DNA of 64,000 bases from Schmidtea nova. Lineage: Eukaryota. Position 1 is the first letter of the stretch, and each line of letters begins with the position of its first letter. The notes beneath the pieces are model-generated. The model was not told the origin of the DNA, made no database searches, and was given only the letters and a program-made list of their open reading frames with translations. The stretch covers positions 415,958,001 through 416,022,000 of the forward strand of contig CM097883.1 of assembly GCA_044892505.1 (NCBI GenBank). Reading direction: 5' to 3'. Below are positions 1,008 to 60,678 of this stretch, piece by piece. A program made the position numbers and the translations under genes.

Positions 1008-1025
1008 TGGGGGCTCAGCCGGGAT
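1008..1025 (+). promoter_or_regulatory. Primer-binding site complementary to tRNA-Pro
   Basis: TGGGGGCTCAGCCGGGAT matches the canonical tRNA-Pro PBS TGGGGGCTCGTCCGGGAT at 16/18 positions. Confidence 0.75.
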
Positions 1026-1405: not shown

Positions 1406-1867
1406 ATGGAGGAAAAGCTGAAGGAAATTGAGGAATTTTTCAACAAGGAAAACGAGACATTAGGAATAATTTGCAAGAAAATAACCCGATTGAGAGAATC
1501 CGAATTTCAGGAACCCACAACACAGACCGAGGAAACAGACGAATTAATAAAGATCATAGAGAAAACAAGTAACATCGACATAAATACTCGTTACAAATGG
1601 TATAAAGCGCGACTAGAAGATGCTGATCTGAACATTAGGTGCCGACAAATAGAACAACGATTAACCCCAACATATAATCGATGGATGGCGCAAGGGGTAA
1701 AAGCAGCGAAAAAATACCGACAGTGTTATATATGTGAGGACAGCGAAATACAAATTATGTTTTTACCTTGCGGACATTTTCGTTTTTGTAAGATTTGTGC
1801 AAACCAGTGCGACCGATGTCCTATGTGCAACTTTACTGTGAATGAAAAAATTGTGGTTTATTTATAA
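1406..1867 (+). CDS. IAP/XIAP-type C-terminal RING finger protein (C3HC4 E3 ligase), no BIR domain
   Basis: CYICEDSEIQIMFLPCGHFRFCKICANQCDRCPMCNFTVNEKIVVYL closely follows the IAP RING pattern at the extreme C-terminus. The ORF is intact and intronless. Confidence 0.85.
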   Translation: MEEKLKEIEEFFNKENETLGIICKKITRLRESEFQEPTTQTEETDELIKIIEKTSNIDINTRYKWYKARLEDADLNIRCRQIEQRLTPTYNRWMAQGVKAAKKYRQCYICEDSEIQIMFLPCGHFRFCKICANQCDRCPMCNFTVNEKIVVYL

Positions 1868-2680: not shown

Positions 2681-3126
2681 AATCGTCGACGAGATTAAGA
2701 ACAGTGCGCACTAGTAGTTGGGAAATGCGAGTAAAGCTGATTATGCGACCTAAGTAATGCATGCAAGGAGAATAATGAAAAATAGGAGCTGACCGGAGAA
2801 ACAGGCAGAAAAAGTAAATGATAGCTAGCAACGAATAACGAATAAAGACGATAAAAAAATAAGTGAGTCAAAAACGACACAGGGAATTAGAGCGCTCAAA
2901 CGACCAATAAATTGGGAAACCAAGGGAATTGTTAATTGAATTGAATTGTTAAACGATAGATAATTATTACGACCTAAATAGATAATTGTGACTAGTCTAT
3001 ATATAATTTAAATAGACTAAAAATAAAAGGGAATCTGGGAATGGGGAAATAATGAAAAACCCAGTGATAAGTAATCCCGAAAGAAAGGGAATAAAAGCGC
3101 GACGATGAGGACATTTGTATTTTAGG

Positions 3127-4963
3127 TACACAAAACAAACCAATCAACCAAGCAAGAAGAATCAGAATACGATAATATATAAGATAAGAAAATTGATAAT
3201 CTAAAGGAAATCCCGCTGAGAACAGGAACAATTAGTGTTGTAATAAAACCACCCAAAAAAAAAGACGTCAGTAATATCAACAAAAAAGACCCAAATAGTA
3301 TTGTAACAGAACCAACAGAAAAGAAGAAAGTCGGCAAGGATAGCAACAAAAAAGAACCAAAAGGGAGTAAAGCGAGGAAGATAATAATAGAAAAGTCGAT
3401 TATCGAAAACGATAAATTATCAGTAACAAGCAACAGTTCAAGCAACAAAGAAAACCAAACAGAACCCAAGAAAAACCAAACAAGTGAAATAGAAATCGAC
3501 GAAACCAACAAAGATTATATCGAAGTAGAACAAGAAGTAGAAATTGACGACATCGATAACGATAGTAAAGCATCAGAGAACGAGCCAATAACAGAGAACG
3601 ATCTAAATCTAAGTGAAACCGAAAACGAACATAACAACGAACTAGAAACAAGAGGAAACGAAAGTAAAACAACTCAAGACAGCGGAATCGAAATGAGCGA
3701 ACCAAGAGAAGAGATAAAAGATAAATTTCCGGAGAACCGTTTAATGGAGATGCGAGCAAATTGGAGACTTTTCTAAAGGAATTTGTCATATTCGTAGAAG
3801 TATGCAAATGGAAACCCGAAACGACAGTAAGCAGAATTCAATTATATTTAAAGAATAGCGCATTGAAGCGAAAAATGGATCCAATTCACCTACAGATTGG
3901 CAAGAAATAAAGGATTTTTTCCAACAAACCTTTGGAATAAACAGAGTTCTAAATGAGGCATTCACAGAATACTCAATGAGAAAACAAAAGATAAACGAAT
4001 CAAATGCAGTATATGCGAGTGAACTGAAAAAGTTAGCAAAGTTGACTTTTAATCAAAACAGCCCAATAAGCGATGAGTTAATGGCAGCCATCTTCATAGG
4101 AGGATTAAGAAGACCAGACATAAGAGCACAATTTGGATGTCAAGGGTGCAAAACCATAGATCAAGCGTTAGAAACAGCGAATAGATTCGAATTACATATG
4201 ATAGGAAGTGAGGGCAGAATTTACTTAGCCATGGACACAACGCAAAACGAACAAGAAGTAAATCTTAACAATCACATCCCAAATTCGCAACAGTTAAACC
4301 GACCACCACCTCAACGAAGGAATGAAGGGAATAAAGTACAAAACTTCGGAAACCAAAACAATTACAGCAACCAAGGACAAACAAAACATTGTAAAACATG
4401 TGGAAAGTTGGGACACTGGCAACAAGAATGTTATCAGAACTTGAATTGCGGAATATGCGGAGTAAAAGGACACTCAGAGAATAGATGCTACACAATAACC
4501 TGTTTTAATTGTGGACGACCTGGCCACCGATCAAGAAATTGCGGACAAAGAAGCAATCAACGAGGAAATTGGCAGAGTAATTGGAAACCGACAAAATTAT
4601 AGAAATCAACCAAATAATGGAAACCGACAAAATTATGGAAATCATCCACAAAATGGAAACCGACAATATTACGGAAACCAACAAAATAATAATAATAATA
4701 ATCAGAATTAAACCACCACCAAGGAAATACATCTGATGCAAGAAGTCCAAAGATTGACGGAACTTATGAATAAGACAAGAGGAAATCCGCAAACCGGTCA
4801 ACAACAAATCAACATGATGAGAAAAGTAGAAAGCGAAAACGAACGATTGAATCAAGAAAGCCAGGCACGACATGCTCAAGAATGGGCAAGAATACAAAGA
4901 GAGGATGAACAAAAACAGCGGGAAAGAGAACGACAACCGATAATGAAAGTCGAAAAGAAATAG
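3127..4963 (+). pseudogene. gag: Gag: acidic/basic N-terminus, capsid-like domain, three CCHC zinc knuckles, N/Q-rich tail; frameshifted
   Basis: FNGDASKLETFLKEFVIFVEVCKWKPET capsid-like motif at ~3740; CKTCGKLGHWQQEC, CGICGVKGHSENRC and CFNCGRPGHRSRNC in ORF 3976-4602. Confidence 0.9.
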
Positions 4964-7400: not shown

Positions 7401-8039
7401 CTGGACAGTGGAAGCGACAGCGGGTCAACCATTGAAACGTAAAGAGGAAAACAGGAAACCACACGGAAGTACAAGTACGCAGAGCCCGATGAAATCAGTA
7501 TTAACGCCAGGAACAAGTTCAAGACGACCCGAGACATACCGAGGGAAACCAGAGAAAGGACTCCACCACAACCATACGATGTGGAAGAAATATTAACGGA
7601 TAGCGACGACATGATAGAGGAGTTAACCGAATTAACAAAGGAAAAAGACGATAACATTTTCGAAAGAATACAAGAACTACCTAGAACAATAAAAGTAATC
7701 AATACCGGAAATGAAGTCGAACAGGAAATAATAATAGAAGAAGTAAACGACTTATCAGAAGAAGAAACAAGAAGAACAAACGTAGAAAATATACACTTAA
7801 CAAAAGAAATGGAAAGGTGGTTAGAAGAAAGAGCTAACGAACCAACAGACGCCACGGAAGAAACCGGACGAGCAACAAGACTTGTGGAAACAGATACAGA
7901 TAGACGACCCCGTGAGAGACCCAAGACAGATCCAGCGAATATAGTTATAAGAAACAAAGATGAAAAGAGGCAAGATCAATGGGAGTTATGCTTAAAGAAA
8001 TTAAATAAAATCGCGGAAATAAAAGAAAAAGAGACAACA

Positions 8040-8450
8040 CAAATGTGTCAAGGTGAGGAATGGATATCAAAAATAATAATGGAAATATTGGCGATAATTG
8101 ATCCAGAATTAAAAATATATTGGCGAATAAACGAAATAAGTGAAAGGGCAAAGTCATTACATAGCGCAATCGCACGAATTTTACCAGAACTCATAAAAGA
8201 AAATACAAAATCAAACCACTTAGACTGGCAAAGAACCACTACGGTAATAAAGAAACTGACAAAAGGGGCGGAGACGGATAACAAATATTTAATAGCCATT
8301 GCGTACACTATTTACAATCTATTGACACTGAGTAGAGGTCGACCAAAACCTATTGCATTAGAAAGACATATAAAGAATACAGCCAAAATTATAACAAGAG
8401 AAATAGAACCGTACGTCATTAGCAAAGGAGGATGGGAAACATTTACCAAA
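8040..8450 (+). CDS. Bcl-2-like domain within ORF 7581-8849
   Basis: BH1-like NHLDWQRTTTVIKKL and BH2-like ITREIEPYVISKGGWETF (cf. Bcl-2 LNRHLHTWIQDNGGWDAF). Confidence 0.7.
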
Positions 8451-8569
8451 ACCAATCAAAAGAAAACTCAAGCCAAGAATATGAAAAAGAAATTCGAAGA
8501 AATATTGGGAGAGTTGGAAAAAGTACAGTCAGGAACAGGAAACGCAAAATCGTCATTGAATCTGAATTC

Positions 8570-10441
8570 AATCATAATGATGATGTTAATATGGACGATT
8601 AGCACCGACGGAGCAACAGCGTTTGAAGTATTCGATTGTGATCAAATGGCATTAGGTGAGAAATATTCATTACGAGGAACAGAACAATGTAAAGACGCCA
8701 CGCCAACAGAATTAAAAACATTACAAAAGAGACAATTGTACCACGTATACCAGGAAGCGGAACTGATAAGAACAATGGTTAGAGAATGCAAAATTTATAA
8801 ACAAGATTCGCTTTTTATTGTGGACGAGGACACTACTCTGCATTTGTGATGCCAGGAACAGAAAGAGAATCAGTAATGCTACAAGGAGAAGACTGCGAAA
8901 AATTGTTCAGATACGGTGAAATAGAAACAAGAGATAAGATAAAATTAAAAGGGATAGTTGGAGCGATAATACAACAAACGTTATATGTAGCAGGAGCGAT
9001 CACATGAGGAGAAGGTTATTGTCAAGGATCAACTTAGCCTATATTTGGAGTACCAGCAACAAACTTAGTGGTAATTGACACCTATACAGTAGAACTTAAA
9101 ACATACGAAGCGTTTTTCGATCCAATAACGGGAGAAATAAAGACCCTGCCAACGTGTAAAATTGAAGCTAGTACCTGCCAAACTGGTATGTCAACTCTAA
9201 CATAACAGACACGAGGAAATGAATGTCAACTACAATTTTTAAAGGAAGCAGAATTCGATGAAATTCAAGGGAAAACATTCCAAGAAGAAGAGGAGAACGA
9301 AGTAGCGAGAGGAAAGATTCTCAAAGAAACAGTACAAGAGAGAAGGATCGAAGCACGAACACAGGAAAAGCAAATCAAGATGAGAAATACCCCAACGGTA
9401 CTAATCACCTCAGATGCGGATGTAGGGATGAGATTCGTAAAAGGGAAAACAGCCTTAAAATGCGGAGTAGCCATGTTGGAAACCAACTACCCCGTTATTT
9501 TTGTATCAAGACAAGCGGTACCTAATGCAAAACGTCAAGTAAACACGAACGATGTTAAACTACACCTCTACGTGAACAATAAAATGGACTTCCTATGTCA
9601 CAGAGGACAAGCCTCATTACAAAAAATATATTACGACCTAATCAACAACGATTGTATATTAAATAAAGAAATACTGAAAACAAAATTAGCAGTAGCTATC
9701 ACAAACCCGGACAGTGCAATGCCACTATTACCATTGAGAGAAGGTCACTTTGGAAGAGTAGTAGGCGAAGTTATGTACGTATATATATGCAAAAAGACAA
9801 ACGCAAATGTTGCAACTGCGACGAAATTACAACCAGGACAATGAACAAACGAATTAGAAATAGAATATAAAGGAAAAGTGAGATATGTACAGCCAGTAAC
9901 AAGAATCATAAATCCAGTAAGCTTCGAGCCAAATCGTTTCAATTGTAGTAACGCATATGGACCACTATATCAAAAGCCAGATGGTAATTGGGTTATGTTC
10001 CATTCAAGAACAGAGGTACCAGCACCTAGAGAGTTCGAATTAATGCAATTATCGAAAGGACGGAAATCCAAAGATGTAGATGTAAACAATATGGGATTTT
10101 ACAGTGCAAAAGATCTAGAAGCGGCAAGACAAAATATATTATTTCCAGCAAGAAGGGAAGCCGTATTATCCAGCATCGTAACCATAACAGGAGGAACAAA
10201 TTACCAAGGTGGACCAAATTATGAGCTACTATTATCACCGACTCATTTTAAGAAAGCAACCGAAAATATGATAAAAGCGATGTGGGGAAGGTTTTTGATT
10301 TTTGGACAAATGATGGCAGGAATACTTGGCGTCATATTAATACTACAAATAATACGAGTAATAATAAAGCAAATGCTCGCGTGTTTTGACATCTACAAAA
10401 GAGAAAAGAAAGTCAACTGGAAATTAGTGGTAAGATTCTAA
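8570..10441 (+). pseudogene. env: Env-like class III fusion glycoprotein of chuvirus/herpes gB type, with one frameshift (~8815) and several nonsense codons
   Basis: Signal IIMMMLIWTISTDGATA|FEVFDC; then VRECKI, YCGRGHYSAFV, GEGYCQG, GHFGRVVGEVMYVYICKK, VRYVQPVTRII, GFYSAKDLEAARQNILFPARREAV and TM WGRFLIFGQMMAGILGVILIL. The motif order matches chuvirus-type glycoproteins. Confidence 0.8.
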
Positions 10442-10591
10442 GTAGTAGGACGAAAATTTAAAAAGATAATGAATGATGAGCAAGCAGGAAAACAGCTTAA
10501 GAAAGAAAGAAAAAGACTGTGGGAAAGAGTAAAAGGATAAAGAACCCAAGACGATTCAAGTGACGACGATGACGACTACAAAGGAGGTCAA

Positions 10592-12960
10592 ATGTATAAG
10601 AACCAAGCACCACAATACATTGAAAAGAATCCAGTTGACGCATGGAAATGTTATGCACCTCCACCAACAATGTATCAAGAATCACCACAAGGAGGAAGAA
10701 CTAATACGATGCAAATGATGCCAATGACGAATATATACCCTATGATAACGGAAGACTATAAAATGAGAAGATGCAGAAGCATGGATCCGCAAGGAGACGC
10801 ACATACCATTGCCGTAATGTCATCAAACACAGGTCCAGTATTAACCACAACCATAGAAATTAACGGAAGGGAAATTGAAGCAATGATCAACACAGGAGCA
10901 AATATTTCCGCATTAGACATTAAATGGATACCACAAGAACAAAGACAAGACATCGAAAGGACGAATGTTCACGTAATCGCATATAGCAAAGAAATCGTAG
11001 AAGTCGAAGGGAGATGGTGGGTAAAAATACGACATTTAAATACAGAAATCGACACCTACGTGGCAGTCATACCAGTGTTAAGCGTACCTTGCATTATTGG
11101 AACAGATCTGATGCCAGCCTTATTTAAAGAAATAGTAATTGATCTCGGAACAATGAGATTAAAAGACCGCACAGGACAAATATGCGCAATAGAAGCAAAA
11201 GTGACCAGTTCAAAGCAAATAATTATACCAGCAAGAAAGGAGAAAATATGTTACGTGAAAATAGACCCTACCATCAAAGGGGATATGATTTTTGAACCAA
11301 GTAAAAGATTCGAGAAAAGGAAGGCGTTGCCAATGGCAAGAGGATTAGTCAACATAAACGATAATTGAGAAATCCCAATAAACGTAATAAACTTCGATGA
11401 AGATAAAATAATCTACGAGAACGAAAGATTAGGTAAGTTAACCCCAATGATGAATATCGAACTACCAATAGAAGGGGAAGAAAAAGGTAAAGAACCCTCC
11501 TGGAATATTGATAGTGAAATATTAAACGAGGATCAAAAGAAACAGTAAGAAAAACTTCTGATAGAATACAAGGATATATTTGCAGCATCCGATTTAGATC
11601 TAGGTACATGCGATGTCACGCTACATACAATATCATTGACAGACGAAACACCAATCGCGTTAAGGCCATACAAATTAGCGGAGGCACAAAAAGCAGTAGC
11701 GGAAGCAGAGGTGCAGAAAATGTTAGATGCAGAGGTAATCGAACCAAGTTGTTCACCCTGGCAATTTCCAGTGGTAATGGTAAAGAAGAAAGACGGAACA
11801 CAGAGATTTTGCATTGATTACCGGAGATTGAATGCAGTAACAAAACGAAACACTTACCCATTACCAGACATTAATGAAATGCTATTAACATTACAGGGAG
11901 CAGCCTATTTTACATCGCTAGAATTGAAAAGCGGATATTGGCAAATAAAAATGAAGGAGGAAGACAAAGAGAAAACTGCCTTTACCATTGGTAGAGACTT
12001 GTACCAATTTCGTAAAATGCCATTCGGATTAACAAACGCACCAGCATCATTTTAGAGATGCATGAATTTCGTAACCCATGGAATAAAACAGTGCATGGTC
12101 TACATCGATGATTTATTAATTTACTCCGGTACGCTCGAACAACACATACCAGATATTCGAGACGTGTTCGTCAGACTCAGACAATGGAAGTTGAAACTCA
12201 AGCCATCCAAATGCGATTGGGCGAAAGAAAAAGTAACATTTCTGGGACATATAGTGTCAGCAAAAGGAAAAGAACCAGACCCTAGAAATATAGACAAAGA
12301 AAAAGAATGCCCAATACCAAAGACAATAACACAGATACAAGAATTTCTCGGATTATGCGGATATTAAAGGAAATTTATAAAGGATTATGCGGGAATCGCA
12401 AAACCCATACAGGAGCTAGTTAAGAAAGATGTATCATTCATATGGGGAAACGAACAGCAAACAGCCTTTGAGACGTTGAGGGATAAACTGATAACTGCAC
12501 CCATAATAGTTCACCCGGACTTCAAGAAGCCATTCTTACTTGCAACAGATGCAAGCGGATATGCAGCGGGAGCAGTGTTAGGACAATACGACAACGAAGG
12601 AAAAGAACGAGTAATCGGATACTATAGCCGAACATTTAAGAAACATGAGAAAAATTACTCGGTAACAGAACGAGAAGCGCTAGCAATCATACTAGCAATA
12701 AAACATTTTAAATATTTATTATGGGGACACATCATCTGTATAACGACAGACCACCAACCACTTGTATGGTTAGGACAACATAAGGAAACATCCAGTAGGT
12801 TAATGAGATGGGCAATGCAATTACAAGAGTACTCACCGAATATAAAATTCTAATCAGGACGAGCAAATGCCAATGCAGATTGTATGTCAAGATTGACATT
12901 TCCGGAATTAACCGATCCTGAAGTACATACGCAAAAGGAACGTACAAAGGAAATGACATA
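10592..12960 (+). pseudogene. pol: pol: aspartic protease (catalytic D>N), reverse transcriptase, RNase H; Ty3/Gypsy type
   Basis: EAMINTGANISAL; RFCIDYRRLNAVT, LKSGYWQI, MPFGLTNAPASF, MVYIDDLLI; LATDASGYAAGAVL, YSVTEREALA, TTDHQPL, RLMRWAMQLQ. One frame with nonsense codons. Confidence 0.95.
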
Positions 12961-13888
12961 GTAATCATAAAAAGAAAAATGCCAGTAGCATTTTTATTAC
13001 CAAAAGACGGAATATTGCCAATACATAGAGCATTACGAACAGACAAGGAGAAGAAGGTAATTAAAATCGCCCGACTAATGCAAGACTGCTGAAGTGATAT
13101 GAACATGATAGACGAGAAAGGAGATACCTTTATGGTGTTTGCAGCAAGGGCTAAAACGAAAACAAAGGTGTTAGAGGAATTACATAAAGCAGGTGCAGGA
13201 CTTATAGAAAAAACGGATAAAGATAACTCAATCCTAGATGTAACATTATTAACACATAACAGGGAAATGGTCAACTTCATTAAAACAATCACAAATCAGG
13301 AAGAAATAGATTATCTAACTAAAACTGTCAAAAAAACTCAGCATACTAACAATGATGCACAACGTCGAGCTAACAGAAGCAATACTTAATTGGATAAACC
13401 CAGATACCAACAAACCAGCGTTCAGAATTAACGAGTTTATAGAACAGAACCAAAACTGGTGTATGAGAAGTGCATTAATAACTTATAAGTGGCCAGAGAT
13501 ATTAAAAATTTTTATGGAAAGAAAGGATCTAAGAATCACCAACAACCCGAAAGAAGAGAAATATACAGGCAAATGGAAAGAATTGATGAGGACATATATA
13601 AACAACTGGATCAAAGCCAAGAAGGAAATTTTGGAATACAAATCCGCCAATAAAGCTATACCTGAGCAGATAGAAACACAGGAGTTTAAAGCAACTAACC
13701 TAACAACATTAGCTTACGCAAAATTGATAGAAGAAATCAATGTCGAGGATGACATTTTTAACGAACCAAGGGGAGGTGACACTACAGACAGCGACGACGT
13801 TAACAACTCGGAAAACTCAGAAGACCACGAACCACCCGATAAAGAGGACAATGAAGGGAAAGACAAGAAGAGACGACCAAGAAAATAA
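12960..13888 (+). pseudogene. Unknown domain at the position where integrase normally lies
   Basis: Coding-like frames 13099-13389 and 13352-13888 continue from RNase H; no HHCC, DDE or GPY/F motif. Confidence 0.5.
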
Positions 13889-13939
13889 AAACGAAACCAA
13901 AAGAACAGGTTATAAACAAACTGTAAACCAATTTTTCAG

Positions 13940-15885
13940 ACCAGAGCTACTATTATTAACAGTAATTATAACCCTAATTAGTCCAAGTCAAGGAATGATA
14001 TGTAGAGAAAGGGCGTTAATACGGATAGCAAACGCAAAAGGAATCGAACGAGTCTGTTGGTCAAAAAAGGACAAAATCTCTGGTCAAAATAACCCGATGG
14101 ATTGCAGAATCTCAATATCCGAACAAGAAACCATAGAGATCGAAGACCTAGATATGGAAACCTGGTATAGAATATGCACCGTCAGAAAACCAAAGGATCC
14201 TAAGTCACATAAGATAATCGCATGTAAAACATACCAAACACCTAAAGTGACCATGACCAGACACCAGTCACCCGAAGGAGACTACGTCGTTGAAAATTGT
14301 AGAGGAACAGAAGCACCAGAAACGAAAGACAAAAAATCACAAGCAACAGATAAACAAACAACGACAGATAGACGGAATACAACGGACAAGCCCGAAACAA
14401 GAATAGCCACAAATCAAACCGAAAGAGTGACTTACCAAATGGAAGGATTATGTTTAGCACTCATACTAGTAATGATAAAACGATTGGAGGAAGGAATAGA
14501 GATTGACACTATAGAAATGATGGATGTAGAAGATACCTGAAATACCAGCGTAAAATGTTGGGCGAAGAACAATGAGGAAATCGGGATAAACAAAGTAGGA
14601 AAAAGTCAAAAGCTAGCCACGGATAAAATAACAAAAATATCCAAAATAAAAGCGGACAGGACGTATAAACTATGCCTGCTGGAAAAGGAAAAGAACAAGA
14701 AAGGTACAATAAATTGTAAAACATTCCAGCCAGGAGAAGTACTTAAGTTCAAAAGGAGAACAAGACGGAGAAATAAACAAACCAAGCAAAAGATAACTAT
14801 AATGCTAAAAATAACAGGAATAGAACCGGAGGTGAAAGGAGTATGCTGGAGGAATTACGAGAAGAAAACAAATAAAAGAATGACACCCCAATGCCAAACA
14901 AGCACAGGAACAACTACGATACAAATAAAAGGTTTTGAAAGCAAACAAACCTATGAAATATGCCTAGTAAGGAAAAGTGATCAGATAACCATAAACGACC
15001 TAGAATGCGGGATATACACAACTTCATCCGGAACAAGAACTAGAAAGATAACACTAAAAAATAAAAGAAGACAACGAAACAAAGGAAAACCGAAGCATAC
15101 CACTACTTTTAAACACGAGAAACAACCAACAAACCAAGAAAGTAAAACAAAACCCGAGAACGACCTCAGCAACTCTTATATTATGGAAAATAGATAATAA
15201 AACATTAGAAATATGTTGGTCAATAACCCAGAAACAAACAGGCAGGCTACCACGATATTGCAGAAAAACAAAGGAAGAAATTAAGATCGAAAACCTACAA
15301 TTTAATAGGGAATACGAAATATGTGCAATAGAGAAAACGGACTCATTAAGAAATCAACAAGAGAGATGCGAAACGTACTATACACCAGCAAACGCGACAC
15401 CGAAAGGAATAATAAGGAAGCTTGAATTTAAGGAATTAAGCCAAACAACAGAACAAATGGATGCCGAAGAAATAATAATAAACCCTCAAGCAAAATGGAC
15501 ACCCGAAGAAGTAATCAAAGAAGTCAAAAGAAAACAACGGAAACGAGAACAGCTGATGAAGAAACTAAAGGGACAATACGGACTAATGGTTAATCGAAGA
15601 AAATTGATACAAATAGACGTTAACAAACAAATCAGGGAAGTAATTGGCTTAGGAATACTAACAGCAAATATACCAATAATAATCGCATTATTAGTAATAT
15701 GGATGTGTGAGGTAAGTAAAAAGAAACAGACAGCCCAATGGCCAAATATAAATATTACAAACTATAAAATTGAATTACCAGAAGAAATACAGAAAGAATT
15801 TCAAAGAAGGACGAAAGGTAAGGAATTTTGGAGACAAATAGAAGATGAGGAGAGATACGACGAAAAGTTAGTAACGATTGTATAG
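13940..15885 (+). pseudogene. Type I membrane protein: signal peptide, four Cys-containing FN3-like repeats, TM helix, short tail
   Basis: LLLLTVIITLISPSQG signal; four repeats CW...(I/L)xxLxxxxxY(R/K/E)(I/L)C...CxxYxT at ~14050, 14550, 14838 and 15208, like FLRT/LRFN-type FN3; TM VIGLGILTANIPIIIALLVIWMC at ~15641-15709. Confidence 0.6.
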
Positions 15886-16010: not shown

Positions 16011-16310
16011 ATGAATGAACAAGACGAAACAACCGAAATAACTATGGCAATGAGATGGAAAGCACAATTTCACTTATTAGTACGAACAATTAACTCACTA
16101 CAAAATCAATTAGCGGAAAGACAAAATTTACTATCTGAGAGTTATAATAACTGCTTCGAACAATTACAGAGGATAGAGAAACAACAAAGATTGATAACAG
16201 AACTCACAAGAGAAAATCAAACGATAAGCAACATAAATCAAAGACAAGCAGTAGAAATAAATCATTTAACAAGAGGAGAGAGAGAGAGGAATCAGAAGAA
16301 GGATGGATGA
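16011..16310 (+). CDS. Hypothetical 99-aa coiled-coil protein
   Basis: Intact ORF, heptad-like composition, preceded by TTTAG|AAATG. Confidence 0.5.
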   Translation: MNEQDETTEITMAMRWKAQFHLLVRTINSLQNQLAERQNLLSESYNNCFEQLQRIEKQQRLITELTRENQTISNINQRQAVEINHLTRGERERNQKKDG

Positions 16311-16460
16311 GTTGGGTAATAAATAGATTGCATAATGATCTAGAACCGGATTCAACAAGCGAGCCATAGATAAACAAAGCGGAAAAATTGTAAATATGTA
16401 AAAATAAAAACAAGAAAATCAAAAATAAACAACAAATCGAATGTATATATTATTGTAGAA

Positions 16461-19006
16461 ATGGATAAAGAAGAACGAGCAGTCGAAATTTTGAGAGCTG
16501 AGAACAGGAAATGGAGCAAGAGGCTCACCTGCGGAAATTGTAACAACTTACTACGAAAACCTAGACAAACTATATGTGGATGTAGAATATGTACTAAATG
16601 TGTACAAGAATTGGGTGTAAAAAGAATAACAGCATGCCCAGAATACAAAGAAGGAAGAATAGTGTTAGACGAAACCAGACCGGATAGAGCAACGCAGAGA
16701 GATTATGAGCACAATAACTGAATGTGTAAACACACCTTGTATATGGCAAGGACAAATAAGCGATTTGGAAAATCACATGGAAAATTGCGAAGAAAAGAGA
16801 ACCGAATGCGAGAAGTGTCAACAGACAATAATTCTAAAGAATAAAGAGCAACACAAGGACGAATGCAAGGAAGAAGAAATTTCATGCGAATACTGCAAAA
16901 CTCGAGAAAAAAGGAGGAAATCGAAGAGGAACACCTGAATATAACCGAGGAGAAAGTATGAGGACAATATGTAAGCATATGTCCAAACAAATGTGAAATA
17001 ACAGAAGAAATAAAGTTACACGAACACTGGAAAGTATGTACTGAAAGACCAAGAGAATGTCCATATAACAAACATGGATGCAAGGAGAAAAGGACGCGAC
17101 AAACAATGAAACAACACTTGGAAGAAGCATCGCTAACGCATGTTGAAATGACAAACGAAACTACAAAAGAAACGGATCAGACAATTCAAAAATTGCAAAG
17201 AGAAATAGAGTCACACAAGATAATGGTAAGTAGACAGTTATGTGGAGCATGAGTCATCGCAGAACAAAGGAAATGACGTCACCCCCCGGGGGGGTTAGGA
17301 ATTTTTTTATGACTCATCGATGACGTCATCGATGACTCATCGGCATGACTCATCGATGACGTCATCGATGACACATTTCAAATTTGAATTTTATGACGTC
17401 ATCGATGACTCATTTCAAATTCAAATTTTGAATTTCCAAAGGTCAAATAAGGTCAAACCTTCAAACAAGGGTATCATTCGAAAGGTCTTTGAGAGGTGCA
17501 CACAATGGTCATACCCTCGATGGTCTATGGTGTGTCCTTAACCTTCAAAGGGTCAAAAACCTTCAGATTTTTCAAACCTTGTGTGTAATACATCATTCGA
17601 AAGGTAATACCGATGTGCACACAATGGTCATACCTTCGAAGGTGTATGGTGTGTGCTCAACCTTCAAGGGGTCAAAATCCTTCAAATATTTTTAAACATT
17701 ACAAGTTATATATCAAACAAAAGGTAATTGAGATTTGAGTATGATGGTCAACCCTCGAAGGTGGGTGGTCGACCTTGGACCCTTTAAGGGTATGACCATT
17801 GTGTGCACCCTTCAATTACCTTTTGTTTGATACATATATTATATAGTTTTTAAAATTTTGAGTCTTGGACCCTTCAAGGGTCGACCACCCACCTTCGAGG
17901 GTTGACCATCATACTCAAATCTCAATTACCTTTTGTTTGATATATAACTTGTAATGTTTAAAAATATTTGAAGGATTTTGACCCCTTGAAGGTTGAGCAC
18001 ACACCATACACCTTCGAAGGTATGACCATTGTGTGCACATCGGTATTACCTTTCGAATGATGTATTACACACAAGGTTTGAAAAATCTGAAGGTTTTTGA
18101 CCCTTTGAAGGTTAAGGACACACCATAGACCATCGAGGGTATGACCATTGTGTGCACCTCTCAAAGACCTTTCGAATGATACCCTTGTTTGAAGGTTTGA
18201 CCTTATTTGACCTTTGGAAATTCAAATTCAAAATTTGAATTTGAAATGAGTCATCGATGACGTCATAAAATTCAAATTTGAAATGAGTCATCGATGACGT
18301 CATCGATGAGTCATAAAAAATGTCCTAACCCCCGAGGGGGGGTGACGTCATTTCCTTTGTTCTGCGATGACTCATGCTCCACATAACTGTCTACTATGGT
18401 AAACCTACTATTAGAAACAAGAGAACAGTTCGAATTAACACGAGAAAATATGGAGAAAAAGATAAAAGCCATCGAAGAATTGGCCAAAGGAATGAAAATA
18501 CAGTACAACAAAATCACACAGGATACCGAGGAAAAACTATCAGTCGCACCATATGTATGGAAGGTAACGGATTTCAGAGACAAATTAGCGGACGCACGAA
18601 ATACGACGAAAACAACAGTAATAAGCACACCATTCTATCTATGGAAAAACGGCTGTAAAATAAGAATGAAAGTTTACCCAAATGGAGACGGAAGAGGACG
18701 AGGAACACATGTGTCGATATTTTTCGCATTATGTAAGGGAGAATACGACGATTTAATAGAATGGCCCCTGGAAGTAGGAGTCATCGTAAGAATCAGAAGT
18801 ATAAGAAAAATGTGGAAAAATTCTTTGAGACAAGTAAGCATGCGAGTACGAGCGAAAAACCAACAACAGAATGTGGATTAGCAGCTGGAGAACCAATGTT
18901 TATAATTCAAGAAAATATATTGGAACTACTATATGCAGACACCTTGTATATAGAAATAGAAAGAAAAAGAACGGACGAGAAAGCAGCAAAGGGATGGTGG
19001 ACGTAA
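16461..19006 (+). pseudogene. TRAF-family protein (RING, TRAF zinc fingers, coiled coil, MATH), intronless, frameshifted and split by an insertion
   Basis: CGNCNNLLRKPRQTICGCRICTKC RING; CVNTPCIWQGQISDLENHMENC and CPYNKHGC zinc fingers; YVWKVTDF..STPFY..GCKIRMKVYPNGDGRGRGTHVSIFFALCKGEYDDLIEWP MATH. Removing 17229-18395 plus one TSD rejoins ESHKI-MV-NLLL in frame. Confidence 0.92.
17229..18395. mobile_element. Non-autonomous Polinton/Maverick-type element made almost entirely of two ~520-545-bp TIRs
   Basis: Termini AGTAGACAG...CTGTCTACT; 6-bp TSD ATGGTA (17223-17228 and 18396-18401); arms ~17229-17774 and ~17879-18395. Confidence 0.75.
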
Positions 19007-19119: not shown

Positions 19120-20181
19120 ATGGGAAATATAGAAGTATGTTTACATGAAATCCCCATACACCAAGATGAAGCTATTAGTAAACACTTGGAACAAATTGAA
19201 ATATGGATCAACGCATATTACCGAAAACATGAGGAGTTTGAGAGACAAGCCGAAGCACTAAAAGAAGCAGAGAAACTAAATCAAAGAAGTCGAGAGAAAA
19301 TAGAAGAAGTATACAAAACATTAAAACAACAAAATGAATATTACAGAGGAATGATGAAAGAACGACGAGAGGAAAGAGATAGACAGCAGATAAAAACCGA
19401 CCACAAGATTCATTCAATTACTGAAGAGGCAAGATACTGCAAAAAAGAGGAGGAAGAATCCTACAAGGAAGCAAGAGAGATAATAGAAAGGACAGCCTAT
19501 AGTGATGATTGGAAGCTATATAAAGAGATCGACGAATTAAAAGAGGAATTAGGACAGAAAATCAGCCAAGAAGTGTCAAATAAAAGATGGAATAAAAAGA
19601 GACAGCAATTTATCTGGGAACAGGCAAAGAAAATTAAAGAACTAACTTATCAAGTACAAAGAATGGGGGAGGAGTTAGCTAACCAAGAACAACTGAAAAA
19701 TATGCTTACCGGAATGTGTAATCACAAAGAGGAAAATATGAAAAGAGACATAAATGGTTACCAAGGAGTGATTACCCAGAAGAAAATAGAATTGAAAAGA
19801 ACCAGAGAAAGACTAGAAGAAGCAAAACAGAGTTATGAAGAAAACATAACCAACTTGACAAAAGAAAACGAGGAACTGAGAAAGAGGTTGACAGAGAAAC
19901 CAATACAGACAAAAGAAACAAGCATTACAGTAGCAGTAACAGAAATGATGAAAGAAGAAGAGAGAAAGACAAAGATAGCAGAATTAGAAAAACAAATAGA
20001 AACACTAACAGAGCAGGCAAACTACCTAGAATATTTATTGGACGAAGAGATTCAGATATCTCATATGTACCGAGACGAAGTTGAAATGTGGAGAAGCACG
20101 GTAGTATGGATGCCACTCCCCATGAACCAAGTGGAACCTCAAGATGAAGGTTTCCACGAACCAAACGAAACCCTAGTGTAA
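19120..20181 (+). CDS. Hypothetical 353-aa coiled-coil protein
   Basis: Long intact E/K/Q-rich ORF preceded by TATAG|AAATG and followed by TGTAAATAAA. Confidence 0.6.
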   Translation: MGNIEVCLHEIPIHQDEAISKHLEQIEIWINAYYRKHEEFERQAEALKEAEKLNQRSREKIEEVYKTLKQQNEYYRGMMKERREERDRQQIKTDHKIHSITEEARYCKKEEEESYKEAREIIERTAYSDDWKLYKEIDELKEELGQKISQEVSNKRWNKKRQQFIWEQAKKIKELTYQVQRMGEELANQEQLKNMLTGMCNHKEENMKRDINGYQGVITQKKIELKRTRERLEEAKQSYEENITNLTKENEELRKRLTEKPIQTKETSITVAVTEMMKEEERKTKIAELEKQIETLTEQANYLEYLLDEEIQISHMYRDEVEMWRSTVVWMPLPMNQVEPQDEGFHEPNETLV

Positions 20182-21514
20182 ATGGAGCGGAAACTAACTG
20201 TAAATAAATGATGTAAAATAAGTGTCAAGCTGTATTGACCTATATGTAAAGAAAGAGATGAGGAAGTTAATAGAAAGAGTTAAAAACAAACGATTTGGTG
20301 TTTTATGATATCAGAAAAGAACTTGTAATCTGTTGTATTCGTGTTTATATTTATTTCCTTGCATTATTTCTGATTATTATTGTAATACATAAGCAATAAT
20401 TGTGAGGTTGTAAGACTTTTTGATGTTAGAAGAAATTAAGAAAGAACTTTAAGAAGAGGAAATTGATGTAGATGAAAAGACAAGTATTCCGATCTATGAA
20501 TATGTTTAAGATGATAAAGAAAATCCAAAAGCTAATCAGGACTTATTTTAATATCAGAAGCTAGCAGGTTTGAACAGAATTGCACTACTATATAAAGATG
20601 CTTACAATGTTCACGATTATTAATTTATCCAGAAATCAGTTGGCATACTTCTGTTATTTTGGTTTCTCAAGTTTATTGCACAATTCTATAGATATCCGTC
20701 TATACAATTTTGTGATTTTATAATTTTATATCAAGTTCTACTCACGAATTATTTTTTAAAAAATGAAATGTCAGATTTGCACTAGCCTTATAAAAATAGC
20801 ATCACTATTGTTGAGGATACATAAATAATAAAATTAAATAATATCATAAATAAAATGATTGGGTGAGAATTGATCGAGTAAACGATATGATGCTCAGGAA
20901 TTCGTAGAAATGAATGAAATCGAACAATAAAGTAAAAGAAGGTCATTGCTAATTAACAACTACAAAATAATTCATTACAAAGATTAGCTTCCGAGACTTT
21001 TTACATAAAAAAATACAAACCTTCCATCAACATTCAATTCGCACAAAAAAATAATGTTAAAAAAAATTTTTAAAAAATTTATTTTCATCCAATAAAATCA
21101 TTATAAAATATAAAATAAATAATTATATAATAATATAACGATTGAAATAGACACTTGATAAAGGCTGTGCCGAAATATTGTGTTATTGTTTAAAAAATTG
21201 TGATTTATAGTTTTATGGAAATTATTAATATTTTTTATTTATTAAAATTTTTAATTAATTACTATTATTTATTTAATATTTATTTATTTCAAATTTATTA
21301 ACTATATAATAAGTAGATAATAAATATAATAAATATTTAATATTAATATTTGTGATGAGTTATGAATGTATATTATCTTGTTGTTATTATTCAATTTTTT
21401 TATCCGTATTTTTATTGTTTTCCATATTTTTATTGATTACCCGGGTTGTTATGTCCGTATTATTGTGTGATTGCGGCAACGTCATGTTACCCCCACTTTT
21501 TATGTTGGCTAATT

Positions 21515-21550
<36 letters not shown>

Positions 21551-22246
21551 CATTTTAAATTAGTATTTTTAATTTGAAATTCGAATTTGGCTTACTATAG
21601 CAAAGGCTATAAATAAGAAATATTGATTATTTAAATAATAATCTAATTAACTTGGCGACAGCTGGAAATTAAAGAAAGTAATAATCGAAGCTAAAAACTA
21701 ATTTAATTCTCTGGATCTACAAGCTATTAAACGTAAAGCGTACGCTGGAACGGAATATCAATCAAAAGACAAGATCTTTTACAAAATTCAAATAAAAAAT
21801 AAAGCTACAAATATAAATTGAAAATTTTACTACAAGATTTTTCTACAACATTGGAATTCATCTCCATTTCCTCTAAATACTTCAACAAACAAAAGTATAG
21901 AAAAATTAACACCTCAACAATAACAACAACAACAACAATCATCCTACAATCCTATCGTAATAAACGATCAACTATCAGAATCTGATAGTAAAGCAAAAAC
22001 TGCACAGACTATTGGCCGATTTGTGATCAGATCTTTTATAAAGTAATTGTATTGTGATTGTTGTTTTAGAGTTTAAATAAGTTAAATAATAAAATTTTTA
22101 TAATAACATATCATTTCGTTTTTACATTTCGTTTTTACCCCGAGTGTCTGCACACGAATACCGCAAGACTCTCTCGGGCGCTTACATTTCTCTTTCATAA
22201 CATATAGATATATTTAATTATAATAAAACGTTATAGTGCAACAAAT

Positions 22247-22258: not shown

Positions 22259-22446
22259 AAAAACAACAAAAAACACAATACACACTCGCCCAATTTTTGT
22301 TCTTTCAATTACTACGCCTTTTAGAATAGCTATAGATAGAGCTCTAAAGGATAGTTGACTCTGTTAGCCGAACACAGTAGGCTATATCCTTTAGTCAATC
22401 TCATTTTTTTCACATTAAAAAAAAGCAACACTACACATAAAGACAA

Positions 22447-23504
22447 ATGGCGTCGAACCAACAAAACCTAACAAACAATCCCCAAACACACAACAACGAA
22501 ACCACACCCAATCAACAAGAGAATACCAGTTATTATTACACCCCTGAAAACCATCACACCATAAATTCGATAATAAACCCCAAGGCAAACATTCCAAATT
22601 ACTTTACAGATGAGAACGGCACACACCAAAAATGGCTAGAGTTCTCAAAACTAACATTGACAATGTCAGGAATTAAATCGACAAAAAGCTTATGTTCCCA
22701 CATAATAGCCGCCGTACCTAGAAATATTCTAAATGAAATCGCAGACTGAATCGACGAAATAGCGAAAAGCGACGACCCATTTAACCTACTATACACAACC
22801 TTATTAAATAGAAATAAGGTGAACAGGAGGGAAGTTTTAGAGTCTTGTCTAAAAGATATACAGCTTGGAAATGACAAACCAAGCGAATTTCTGAGAAATC
22901 TGAAGAGCAAACTAGATTTTTTGCAACCCAAAATCACAAGCGCGGGTCAAAATGATTTCGTGAAAGACCGATTCATGAGGGCAATGCCGCAAGAAATAAG
23001 AAGCATCTTAGTGACAAACGACTGCACAGACCTCGACAAAATTGCCGATATCGCGGACAAAATTAATGACGAAATATTCCCAAAAGTTTGCAGAACATAC
23101 CGAAAACAACACCCGTGGAAAACAAGCAAGAAAACCGTCAAGAACGAGATAACCCCAACAATGATACCAATCTTCTGCTGAACTCGTTAATAAAGAAAGT
23201 TGACGAGGTCTTAACAGAAAACAATAACCTCAGGAATGACTTACAAGAGGCACAAGCGAGAGAAACGAAAAGAAACCAAATCAATCAAAACAACCGTACA
23301 GAACAAAACCCTAACTTTAACCTTTACCAAAATAACCATAACAACCCCACAGAGCAAAAACCAAATTTTAACCGATATAATAACCCAAACAACAGCTACA
23401 TACAAAATGAAAATTGGTGTTATTTTCACAATAGATTTAGAGACAAGGCGTACAAGTGCAACGCACCTTGTACTTTCAACAATAAAAAGCCGGAAAACTT
23501 ATAA
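22447..23504 (+). pseudogene. gag: Gag of a CsRn1-like Gypsy element
   Basis: WLEFSKL..GIKS..LCSHIIAAVP, LGNDKPSEFLRNLK and WCYFHNRFRDKAYKCNAPC; one nonsense codon and one frameshift. Confidence 0.8.
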
Positions 23505-23512
23505 AGTCATCA

Positions 23513-26180
23513 ATGATCGCACCGACCATTGGTGACAGCCAAACATTCACGGTGCAAAGCAACAATATAAATTTCCTCGTAGACTCCGGTTCAACAGTTA
23601 GTTTGTTACCAAGTTATTTGTTCCAATCCTTAAAAGAAGGAAACTACAACTTGTGCGCAGCAAATGGCAGCAACATCAAAACATATGGCAAACAAAAATT
23701 AACCATTAATATAAACAAAACAAACTACAATTGGGAATTTATCATCGCCGATGCGAAACAGGCCATTTAGGAGCCGATTTCCTAGCGAAATACAACTTGC
23801 TAGTAGACTTCCGAAATAAAGAAATTATACAAAATACTTTTGAAACAGAAAAATACCCAAACAACAAATCTAACCAGAAAAACTTAAAAATCTTAACAAA
23901 TTGTGACATCGAAGTAATCACCGCAAACACAATTAAAATACAAACAAAAGACTTACAAACCAAAAATACAACCAAATGTGAAAAAACACACACAGACAAT
24001 AATATACCAAAAGAAATCAAAGAATTACTCAAAAACTACCCTACAATCACAGACAAACTGTCAATAGAAACCACAAATAAATGTATCACAGAACACGCCA
24101 TCATAACAAACGGTAACCCAGTACACGCCAAAGTAAGACAACTGGACAACAAACAACTCACAATAACCAAAGAAATTTTCGACGATTTATTGGAAAACAG
24201 AATCATTCAACACTCCAATTCAAACTGGTCATCTGCGCTCATGTTAAAAGAAAAAGCAAATGGCGAATGGAGAGCATGCGGAGATTATAGAGCTTTGAAC
24301 AATATCACAATACCCGACAAATACCCCATACCTATAATCAACGACATAATCAACAGGATACATAACCCAAATTACTTCAGTAAAATTGACTTACAAAAAG
24401 CATATCACCAAATTCCGGTGCGTGAAGAAGATATAAAAAAACTGCAATAATAACGCCGATCGGGTTATATGAATACAATCAAATGCCATTCGGTTTGAAA
24501 AACGCAGCCGCCACTTTCCAAAGGTTCATGGACCAAATCCTGAGAAACCACAGGAATACGGTTGCGTATTTAGACGACATCCTAATCGCATCAACAAATA
24601 AAATCGAACATATTAAGGACATTAAGGAAGTCCTAAACACCCTAAACAATCACGATCTCAAAATAAATATTAAGAAGTGCGAATTCTTAAAACACGAAGT
24701 CAAGTTCTTGGGACATATCCTTAACGAAAATGGAACAAGACCTCTAGACGACAAAATAAAAGCCATCAAAGAATTCCCACTCCCCAAAACAAGAAGAGAA
24801 TTAAGACGTTTTATGGGAATGATAAACTTTTACCACAAACACATCCCAAAGTGCAGCGAGATACTCGCACCATTAACCTAACATACATACTCAACACTGA
24901 TTGCTCTGGAACAGCAATGGGAAGTACAATATACCAAGAAAAGCATAATGAAAAAAGACCCATCGCATTTTTATCAAAAAAACTCAAAGTTCATATGCGA
25001 TATTCCACTTTTGACAGGGAACTGCTGGCGGTACACGATACAATAAAACACTTCCAATACCTCTTAGAAGGGAAAGAATTCGAGGTGTATACAGACCACA
25101 AACCTCTAGTAAACGCAATCAACATGAAATTACCGTCACCAAGACAAATAAGACAGTTAAATTACATTTCACAATTCAATTGCGAAATAAAATAAATAGC
25201 AGGAGCAGCAAACATATGCGCAGATACCCTTTCGTGAATTGAAACAGAAACAAACGCGATCAGCATGATCCCAATAGTGAATCAAGAAACAATGAGAAAC
25301 AAGCAAGAAAGAGCAATAAAAAACTTTCCAAAACTCAACTCACTTATTCTAAAAGAGATGGATGGAATTTGGTACTATGTCTCAAACGAAAACAACATAA
25401 GACTAAAAGTACATGAGGAACACAGAATCGAACTCATCAAACACGAACTCATGCACACAAAAGTGGTATGGCCGAACATGAGGAAGGACATCAAAGAATT
25501 CGTAAACTCATGTATAAACTGCCAGAAAAACAAAATAACAACTAGATTCAAAACAAAAAAAATTGAAATCCCAAAAACAGAACCTTTCCAAACAATACAT
25601 ATAGACATAGTTGGTCCATTACCACCTAACAACAAACACAAATACCTATTGACGATAATAGACCGATACACTTACTGGTTTGAGGCTATCCCAATCCAAG
25701 AGATCTCAACAGCAACAATTTGCAGGAAACTAGAAATAAACTGGTTTGCGAGATACGGATGTCCAAAAACAATTATTAGCGATCAAGGCAGACAATTTGA
25801 ATCTGATATGTTCAAAGGACTGTGCAACAAATACAAAAAAAAAGAAAGTCAGAACAACAGCATATAACCCACAGTCAAACGGCAAAGTGGAAAGACTTCA
25901 CAGAGCATTAAAACAAGCGATACGAACTAAAGCTAATGACAGAAACTGGTTAGGAAAACTGCCAGAAATCCTAATCGCATTACGAAATAATCCATCTTCG
26001 ATAAATAATAAAAGCCCTAGCCAATTAAATTTTGGACATTCTACAAACCTCCCAAATTTAATAAAAAATGTCGAAAACACGAATAAAACATTCGAAGTCA
26101 AAACACAAACAAAGCATAACGAAACAAAAGAAGCTTTCGTAAATAGAAATGACAAACACAAACTTGCAAAAACACTATAA
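23513..26180 (+). pseudogene. pol: pol: protease, RT, RNase H, integrase truncated before GPY/F
   Basis: FLVDSGSTVS; WRACGDYRALN, DLQKAYHQI, MPFGLKNAAATFQR, AYLDDILI; YSTFDRELLA, YTDHKPL; CINCQKNK, IHIDIVGPLP, IISDQGRQFES, NGKVERLHR. Confidence 0.95.
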
Positions 26181-26886
26181 CGTTTTATTATAATTAAATA
26201 TATCTATATGTTGTGAAAGAGAAATATAAGCGCCCGAGAGAGTCTTGCGGTATTCGTGTGCAGACACTCGGGGTGTATGCTATGTGATGCTAAAAGAACA
26301 GTAAAAACGAAATGATATGTTATTATAAAAATTTTATTATTAACTTATTTAAACTCTAAAACAACAATCACAATACAATTACTTTATAAAAGATCTGATC
26401 ACAAATCGGCCAATAGTCTGTGCAGTTTTTGCTTTACTATCAGATTCTGATAGTTGATCGTTTATTATGATAGGATTGTAGGATAATTGTTGTTGTTGTT
26501 GTTATTGTTCAGGTGTTAATTTTTCTATACTTCTTTTGTTTGTTGAAGTATTTAGAGGAAATGAAGATGAATTCCAATGTTGTAGCAAAATCTTGTAGTA
26601 AAATTTTCAATTTATATTTGTAGTTTTATCTTTTATTTGAATTTTGTAAAAGATCTTATGTCTTTTGATTGATATTCCGTTCCATCGTACGCTTTGCGTT
26701 TAATAGCTTGTAGATCCCGAGAATTAAATTAGTTTTTAGCTTCGATTATTACTTTCTTTAATTTCCAGCTGTCGCCAAGTTAATTAGATTATTATTTAAA
26801 TAATCAATATTTCTTATTTCTTATTTATAGCCTTTGCTATAGTAAGCCAAATTCGAATTTCAAATTAAAAATACTAATTTAAAATG

Positions 26887-26928
<42 letters not shown>

Positions 26929-27358
26929 AATTAGCCAACATAAAAAGGGGATACCATGCCGTTGCCGCTATCACACAATAATACGGATATAACAACCCGG
27001 GTAAACAATGAAAATACGGATAAAACTCGGATAAAACTCGGATAAAACTCATCACAAATATTAATAAATAAATAATATTTGTTTATTTCAAATTTATTAA
27101 CGTTTTTATAACTTTATAATAAGTAGATAATAAATATAATAAATATAATAAAATCATAAATATTTAATATTAATATTAATAAATAAATAATATTTGTTTA
27201 TTTCAAATTTATTAACGTATTTTTACAAAAATTACTATATTTCTTTCAATTTTTTTCATTTCAAATTTATTATTGTTTTTATAACTTTATAATATGTAGA
27301 TAATAAATATAATAAAATAAGAAATAATATACGAAAGGTAGTGAATAAAATTAAATAC

Positions 27359-30882: not shown

Positions 30883-31698
30883 AATTTGCCAATGGTCATC
30901 AAATTTTTAACTCCAAAACCAGACAATAATCACATTTTTTAAACACCATTTTCCTACATATTTATTCAAAATCACTAACTTACCATGCAAAGTTTAAATC
31001 ATTTTTAATTACACATTAAATTCGTAACAATTCCAATTCAATTCAAAAATATCTACAAAGCGACTTTGTTTTTAAACTTCACTCAAAAAATCACACTTCA
31101 TCACGATTACCAAATATTATTTAAAACCAAATTACTCTTACTATGCAAATTTTCAAACAATTCTAACTTACACAAATATTATTAAAACAACATTTTTAAA
31201 AAACTTTGTTTTCTACTTTAATAATCAAATATAAAATTTTTCTTATTTTCCAAAACAACTATTACCAAAATTAAAATTTCATTCCAAAAACTTTTAAAAA
31301 TTTAAATTCTAAATCAATCACAAATTCAATTCACGAATTGAAGATTTCTTAATATATTCAGTTCCTAAAATTCAGCAATTGAATTGTCACTAATATGATA
31401 TTTATGTTACACACAAATAGAATCAGTTTTGATATCTTCTCTGGTTACTGTAGGGTTGTGGTGCACTGTTGAAATTGTAATACAAATCAGGAGACAATTG
31501 ATAAGCACTTAAAGGAATCGATGAATCGATTAAGTCTATAGTCCGAGAGTTGGAATGCTGATGAAATAGTGATTTGAAAACATATGGTCTGATGTGAAAA
31601 TAATTATTCATACTGTATTATGCGCCGAGTGCCGATCCTTCAATAACATTAATTACAACTAATCCGACTAGTGAAGGTCTCACAGATTTAACAGCAGA

Positions 31699-33260: not shown

Positions 33261-33929
33261 TCCAATCTTGAAATACAAATGTTTCCCTATACAAATGACC
33301 CAACAACCTGATATCCCCGATGTCTGCCGATACATCCAACTACCAACTTCCAACAAATAAGAATACTACTACTCCACAACTCACAAAAATTCCAATAATA
33401 TTAATACTAATGACTCCTGATGATTCATGAAGTTTGCTAAACGTCTCCTGATGACTCCTAATATCTAGCAATCTCAACTCAATATAGAGAACTTATCGAA
33501 AATAGCCATTTTTCCCCGAGTAGGGGATCAAAGGAAGAAAATATTATAAAACAGAAGAAATAAAGCCTGCACTACTGTGGCCAAGCTTGTCCGAGAGGAC
33601 TGGATCTGAATCTTCGGAGCAGAATTTTTTTCTTTTGAAAAATTTTGAGAGTTATCTACAAGGATAATTCGCATATTGAGAAAAAACTTCTAAGATTGTC
33701 GATCATACAGGAACAGATGGAACTAAAAAACTGACGGCCCAGACGAATCAAACAGAGACTAGAACAACAATGATTAGCGATTATTTTGGTTTATACACTG
33801 AAAACAAGCACGGGCAATAAAGTTTTTAAATGATGCAAAAAACCCATGGCCTATTCATTATATTCACTAATAATCTTTTTCTTAAAATTTTCTTAAATTC
33901 ATTTTTAATTTAAAAAAAAGTAATTCTTC

Positions 33930-35411: not shown

Positions 35412-60678
<25,267 letters not shown>

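Follow-up and report, generated by a model that had tools for sequence, protein, structure and literature searches.

The TRAF gene at 16461-19006 of the 64-kb stretch of DNA analysed here (the window) is a pseudogene: it was once full-length and now encodes nothing functional. The retroelement that carries it is, judged from its domains, a defective Burro-like copy of a giant Gypsy element, and our results support the view that the TRAF belonged to that element as an accessory gene. This conclusion is drawn because the codon use of the TRAF matches that of the element core and because its start signal is shared with the neighbouring accessory ORFs. We think it probable that the gene is the dead copy of a TRAF from a Burro-like giant env Gypsy, in which a host TRAF mRNA had been captured and then retained by selection as an accessory gene, its expression depending on splicing. 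The evidence for a TRAF in this element comes from one copy only.

Structure and decay of the TRAF gene

The TRAF lies on the plus strand, with its start ATG at 16461 and its final stop at 19004-19006, and the RING, zinc fingers, coiled coil and MATH domain follow one another between these points. A sequence-only reading of this DNA had claimed all TRAF domains in canonical order on the strand of the element, and the database matches bear this out. The RING piece has TRAF2 (E 7e-6) and TRAF5 (6e-5) as its best PDB matches and stays below the cut-off of the Pfam RING models (TRAF3_RING, E 0.0097). The second zinc-finger piece contains a zf-TRAF domain (PF02176) at 29.3 bits (cut-off 27), and the coiled-coil stretch aligns with the corresponding region of relatives. 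Above the Pfam cut-offs in the MATH piece are PF22486 (MATH_2, E 1e-17) and PF21355 (TRAF-mep_MATH, E 1e-15), and its best PDB matches are TRAF5, TRAF3 and TRAF2 (E 2e-18 to 3e-16). The CGCRIC motif with cysteine at the histidine position, also noted in the earlier reading, is present in the translated RING; at the position of the eighth ligand the window copy has no Cys, Asp or His.

The same reading had called the gene complete and intronless. Completeness has to be given up: in a three-frame translation with piecewise alignment to four relatives, the coding sequence consists of five stop-free pieces distributed across three frames, and a total of five breaks is found, namely three frame changes (near 16700, 16900-16925 and 18800-18857), one in-frame stop (16959-16961) and one insert of 1,167 bp. 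As regards introns, the pieces are collinear with residues 34-466 of P0045, a database relative of 469 aa, and the sole intron-sized gap is the transposon insert, from which it follows that the TRAF gene has no introns. That part of the claim stands, although the span noted as intronless includes the insert, which had gone unmentioned.

The insert is a fold-back DNA transposon, 1072 of its 1167 bases being identical to its own reverse complement. A 6-bp target-site duplication is present at 17223-17228 and 18396-18401, and the A-skew of the flanks is absent from the insert itself. Its interpretation as an intron is ruled out by the terminal inverted repeats and the target duplication, and the sole donor-like site straddles the left edge. 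No second copy was found within the 64-kb window, and all 13 Rfam matches, 12 of which fall on the insert, are sub-threshold. A 6-bp target-site duplication combined with long terminal inverted repeats is given as a trait of Polinton/Maverick-type derivatives in the accessible part of PMC4196379. With these two features the insert would fit a non-autonomous element derived from Polinton/Maverick, which is named here as a candidate family only.

The carrier element and its codon use

The features of the element and of the TRAF are collected in Table 1. Domains were assigned from a Pfam scan of 36 plus-strand ORF pieces. Decay is element-wide, gag, env and pol all being broken. No integrase was detected, either as a Pfam match in the scanned plus-strand pieces or by tblastn using the integrase of the neighbouring Gypsy, and no LTR pair or direct repeat belonging to the element was found within the 64-kb window. 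Because neither integrase nor LTR pair was found, the carrier is called defective and Burro-like, without assignment to Burro1-4. The architecture of the element and the AT content suggest a planarian host. The 5' LTR may extend past the left edge of the window. The candidate inner ends of the element lie approximately 19 kb apart, and the candidate primer-binding site presumably resembles tRNA-Pro sites.

Table 1. Features of the carrier element and of the TRAF gene, in window positions
Feature	Position	Strand	Evidence or remark
Candidate primer-binding site	1008..1025	+	sequence
Upstream ORF with IAP-type RING, open	1406..1867	+	cIAP2 E 3.5e-11
gag region, three CCHC knuckles, broken	3106..4602	+	zf-CCHC E 3.6e-8; Retrotrans_gag E 0.009
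Helical region where Burro has a Bcl-2-like domain, candidate	7950..8582	+	by eye
env, Monjiviricetes-type fusion glycoprotein, broken	8600..10441	+	PF24664 E 1.5e-18, 3.8e-25; between gag and protease
Protease, reverse transcriptase, RNase H	10541..12853	+	Pfam; 5 stops in 771 codons
Ankyrin-like repeats, weak	13093..13389	+	E 0.12
Accessory ORF, FN3-repeat membrane protein, broken	13900..15885	+	N-terminal hydrophobic stretch, C-terminal TM-like stretch
Accessory ORF, short coiled coil	16011..16310	+	sequence
Spacer before TRAF	16311..16460	+	TGTAHATA motifs, AATAAA, T-rich acceptor-like TAG/AAATG
TRAF start and RING piece	16461..16700	+	Cys replaces His, no eighth ligand; reading frame changes near 16700
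TRAF first zinc-finger piece, in second frame	16696..16920	+	Sina_ZnF E 5.5e-4; frame change near 16900-16925
TRAF second zinc-finger piece with beginning of coiled coil	16920..17228	+	zf-TRAF E 1.5e-6; in-frame stop 16959-16961
Fold-back DNA transposon, non-coding	17229..18395	.	1,167 bp; internal 119-bp and 37-bp repeats; 6-bp TSD
TRAF remaining coiled coil and TRAF-type MATH	18396..18857	+	Pfam and PDB matches; frame change near 18800-18857
TRAF C-terminal part of MATH and stop, third frame	18824..19006	+	alignment to relatives
Accessory ORF, 353-aa coiled coil, open	19120..20181	+	weak matches only
Candidate polypurine tract	20248..20266	+	A-skew stops here

For the helical region before env, the single-sequence fold gave a model of pLDDT 45 whose top fold match, Bcl-xL, is not significant (E 1.7), and a Bcl-2-like domain was not matched there by sequence in Pfam or PDB. 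The upstream ORF with the IAP-type RING probably belongs to the element. Its codon model prefers the core only slightly, it is preceded by a similar T-rich AG (TAG/TAAATG), and a BIR was not found beside the RING. Two further observations concern the left part of the window. The leader before gag contains tandem repeats of 30, 32 and 43 bp (2317-2670), and a 210-aa ORF at 18-650, which lacks the A-skew of the element, may sit in the 5' LTR or in another element.

Of the four ORFs after pol the TRAF comes third, following the FN3 ORF and the short coiled coil and preceding the 353-aa coiled coil, and thus lies between pol and the apparent 3' end of the element. For the FN3 ORF, Atlas features (0.94) lead to LRR/FN3 clusters, which we treat as a lead. 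The 353-aa ORF weakly resembles the coiled coil of pyrin (E 0.06), and its frame has remained open in an element that is mostly broken. A T-rich stretch followed by TAG/AAATG is common to the starts at 16011, 16461 (the TRAF) and 19120. Among the 355 plus-strand ATGs of the element, TAGAA directly precedes five, and the T-rich context is present in three of these, which are exactly the starts of these three ORFs.

The spacers of the block are 113-150 nt long, with AATAAA in two of three. The motif TGTAHATA, which we take to resemble a Pumilio site, was noticed in the spacers first and tested afterwards: it occurs six times in the 527 nt of four spacers against a shuffled mean of 0.13 (0 of 5000 shuffles), and the spacer after the TRAF has no perfect copy. 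Spacers within flatworm operons peak near 100 nt in Macrostomum, according to the accessible part of PMC8629364. The spacers of the accessory block resemble these, and by this analogy spliced-leader trans-splicing of the block is possible.

The codon use of the TRAF is that of the element core. At four-fold sites A and T account for 84 and 13 of 128 positions in the TRAF, 499 and 77 of 798 in the core, and 81 and 80 of 224 in host exons, so that a Fisher test separates the TRAF from the host exons (p 1.9e-9) but finds no difference from the core (p 1.0). The host-exon sample comprises eight pieces of the same window, 626 codons in all, chosen by eye; Pfam confirmed the MORN piece, and two other pieces had no match. 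The log-likelihood of the TRAF is -365 under the element model (-380 in the worst of 200 size-matched subsamples) and -433 under the host-exon model, and size-matched core models fit its synonymous choices better in all 200 subsamples. The accessory block has the same profile as the core, with A at 62% and T at 11% of four-fold sites. An ordinary Gypsy next to the element shares this A-richness (51% A, 13% T), so that the bias shows long residence in a retroelement and is not specific to this family. The TRAF fits the present element better than that Gypsy (-356 vs -386, values that are not size-matched). The earlier claims that the gene shares the A-rich codon bias of the element, and that it is retroelement cargo, are thus both upheld, the latter by codon assimilation, by the start signal common to the flanking ORFs and by the position between pol and the 3' end.

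Several other features were recorded in the rest of the window. The neighbouring Gypsy, with gag, PR, RT, RH and integrase at 22441-26180 (Pfam), is enclosed by inverted arms of about 1 kb (21227-22238 and 26173-27194, 87.5% identical). The arms do not look like a pair of LTRs; they look more as if nested 5' ends had been duplicated in inverted orientation. A third Gypsy is represented by a gag-protease fragment on the plus strand at 31675-33360. Short palindromic repeats at 21147, 36818-37004, 38068-38229 and 55014-55112 share their ends and form a family. Host exons were found on the minus strand at 27287-60678 (OXA1-like and NAE1-like by eye, MORN-repeat by Pfam), and a Rab-like fragment lies at 49922-50149.

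Relatives, proposed history and rival explanations

At the RING motif position, 20 of 160 database relatives have His, 10 Cys and one Phe, and the pattern is absent from the remainder. Trees were built with 19 of the 160, comprising 17 AT-rich single-MATH proteins, with two named shark TRAFs serving as the outgroup. The window TRAF and 11 relatives, grouped by possession of the Cys RING or of a shared zinc-finger motif, lie on one side of a branch with support of 94/97. With P0045 removed the branch has support of 96/97, and with the window gene removed 92/97; the motif columns were kept in these trees. Eight of the 11 relatives have Cys, one has Phe and two have no RING. The possibility that Cys for His is a product of decay is ruled out, as the change marks a clade of AT-rich TRAFs. 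The members of this clade are perhaps planarian, which is a guess from their composition.

Of these relatives P0045 is the best overall match (70 of 155 matches scored). It is an open TRAF with an identical CGCRIC motif and is 33% identical to the window TRAF, the range for all aligned relatives being 24-33%. The A-skew of its amino-acid make-up is 2.78, compared with 2.61 in the window TRAF and 1.29-1.66 in the other ten relatives of the clade, so that one of the 11 is element-like in composition and ten are host-like. P0045 and the window TRAF pair with support of 91/49 and are flagged as long branches. MATH-only trees neither resolve the placement of P0045 nor group the A-rich proteins. Its source label is metaclust, with no genomic context, and on its sequence P0045 is a candidate for an intact element-borne TRAF and no more. 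Searches for close relatives found none. The MATH piece gave six matches of 31-39% identity. In the representative library, none of the best 150 of 3442 matches to this piece exceeded 54% identity, and with the RING piece none of 31 candidates was retained. The search with P0045 returned P0045 itself and five distant proteins. P0060, a double-MATH protein of element-like composition (2.07), has no support as an element gene, since the tree fails to place it with the window TRAF.

The history that we propose begins with the spliced mRNA of a host TRAF of the Cys-RING clade, which would have been taken up during reverse transcription long ago; capture of a spliced mRNA would account for the lack of introns. 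The gene may then have replicated with the element for long enough to acquire its A-rich codon use. That the zinc ligands were mostly kept and the MATH core was kept, despite codon assimilation, suggests that the TRAF was under selection while it was cargo. A separate mRNA for it could have arisen through splicing to the AG that immediately precedes its ATG. This may have happened in cis from the leader of the element, by analogy with retroviral accessory genes, or in trans, with spliced leaders added to the transcripts of an operon-like cassette; the two routes fit equally well. TRAF and cIAP proteins are partners in TNF-receptor signalling. The element may thus have carried a matched pair of TRAF and IAP-type RING, in which the TRAF, as adaptor or E3, would have biased TNF-receptor or innate-immune signalling and caspase signalling towards survival of the host cell, in the way reported for the IAP of Burro1. 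After insertion the copy would have decayed and then been struck by the fold-back transposon. Capture, selection, splicing and role are in each case what we infer from the features described above.

Other explanations of the TRAF have to be considered beside this one. One, which is very unlikely, is that the element was already dead when a processed pseudogene of a host TRAF happened to insert into it. An intronless, broken gene known from one copy, in a clade whose other members are mostly host-like, is what such an origin would give, but the gene follows the element and not host exons in its codon use, the start signal is identical to that of both adjoining ORFs, and no poly(A) tail was found after the stop. 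An even smaller probability, close to negligible, is given to a working host TRAF in which the 1.2-kb insert is an intron and the breaks are errors of assembly. A GTAAGT donor-like site is present at 17226, and N gaps elsewhere in the assembly make errors possible; against this stand the inverted repeats and target duplication of the insert, whose edge the donor-like site straddles, four further breaks in the TRAF, stops across the whole element and codon use that is not host-like.

If the TRAF was part of the element, it could still have been passive cargo, carried without function for its host element, and the window copy is indeed broken throughout. We find this unlikely, if somewhat less so than the explanations above, in view of synonymous sites that are fully assimilated alongside zinc ligands and MATH motifs that are largely kept, of the open relative P0045 with its matching compositional signature, and of decay that affects gag, env and pol as well. 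The accessory block from the FN3 ORF to the 353-aa ORF might also have come from another mobile element or a virus by recombination with this Gypsy copy at the site of integrase loss. In favour are the absence of an integrase from the junction and of an LTR pair that would link the block to gag-pol. The block, however, has the strand and the codon profile of the core, and accessory ORFs, MATH included, are already known from Burro in section 7 of PMC6431247, so that we would assign this origin the same low probability as a processed pseudogene. The preferred reading remains that of a captured TRAF selected as an accessory gene of a Burro-like element.

That the TRAF-like family of planarians is greatly expanded, as the sequence-only reading stated, agrees with published accounts (PMC6109357, PMC7586133). 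In the accessible text of these two papers and PMC8807557 the TRAF/MATH expansion is on record and called unresolved. PMC6109357 counts 99 transcripts with 121 domains and, in the text available, treats DNA-transposon domains apart from TRAFs. In a term search of the text available, 'transpos' was absent from PMC7586133 and PMC8807557, and 'Burro' from PMC8807557. The same reading suggested that retroelement amplification might explain some of this expansion, on which the indirect evidence points both ways: one of the 11 clade relatives is element-like in composition. The host-like composition of the other ten argues against elements holding most of the family diversity, with the reservation that representatives at 50% identity hide copy number. 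It is conceivable, though unlikely, that in Burro-like elements an operon-like cassette of FN3 receptor-like protein, full TRAF and coiled-coil proteins, with an IAP RING upstream, is cut into mRNAs by spliced-leader trans-splicing, and that these elements carried TRAFs both into the host genome and back out of it, from which part of the planarian expansion would stem. Counts of planarian TRAF/MATH genes based on transcripts may include element genes, for which A-skewed codon use and an acceptor signal before the ATG offer two cheap filters.

Comparison with known systems

The closest known system is the planarian Burro, whose hallmark is an env between gag and protease (Arkhipova and Yushenova 2019, PMC6431247 section 7). 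MATH_TRAF_C has been on record in Burro/GYPSM1 since 2007 (PMC6431247, citing Jurka 2007 and Grohme 2018), and its published sites are the ORF1 polyprotein in S. mediterranea and an upstream accessory ORF in D. tigrina. The present element, with about 19 kb between its candidate inner ends, shares with Burro/GYPSM1 the three CCHC knuckles of gag, PR-RT-RH and an env of fusion-glycoprotein type placed between gag and protease, as well as cargo related to apoptosis and ubiquitin, here an IAP-type RING, MATH_TRAF_C, weak ankyrin-like repeats and a long coiled-coil ORF. It differs in that a TRAF with RING, zinc fingers, coiled coil and MATH has its place after pol, as one of four ORFs that include an FN3 membrane protein, FN3 being outside the domains described for Burro in section 7 of PMC6431247. 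Further differences are its decay and the failure to find a BIR, an integrase or an LTR pair.

The literature searched, including the accessible parts of PMC8532177, PMC11410931 and PMC13238120, contains neither a full RING-to-MATH TRAF in Burro nor a description of a shared acceptor signal before ATGs; Grohme 2018 and Lee et al. 2026 lie outside this literature and may have either. The finding is therefore partly known: TRAF-type cargo in Burro had been reported, and within the literature searched the full RING-to-MATH TRAF in a downstream cassette is a new form.

The domain order is that of the TRAF2/3/5 adaptors and of the planarian TRAF-like family, and among solved structures the MATH domain is nearest to TRAF5, TRAF3 and TRAF2, whereas the Cys for His in the RING, the element-type codon use and the pseudogene state set the window gene apart from both. 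Burro1 B-IAP is reported to be a captured IAP used against caspase-mediated death (Lee et al. 2026, as cited in the accessible text of PMC13465017). It likewise represents a captured cell-death regulator in the same kind of element, and the present element also has an ORF with an IAP-type RING; the captured gene here is a different one, a TRAF, known from its sequence, and no BIR was found beside the RING.

A TRAF-like gene in a selfish replicon is also known from the fish virus ISKNV, in which ORF111L acts on host death signalling and promotes apoptosis via TRADD and caspase 8 (PMC3352826, in the part available). Its carrier, unlike ours, is a large DNA virus, and the likeness is drawn on gene type and setting. 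By analogy with this pro-apoptotic viral TRAF, the effect of the element's TRAF on cell death is uncertain in direction and could run either way. With the window TRAF, a whole TRAF gene, beside an IAP-type RING, joins the bare MATH domain among the known cargo of Burro.
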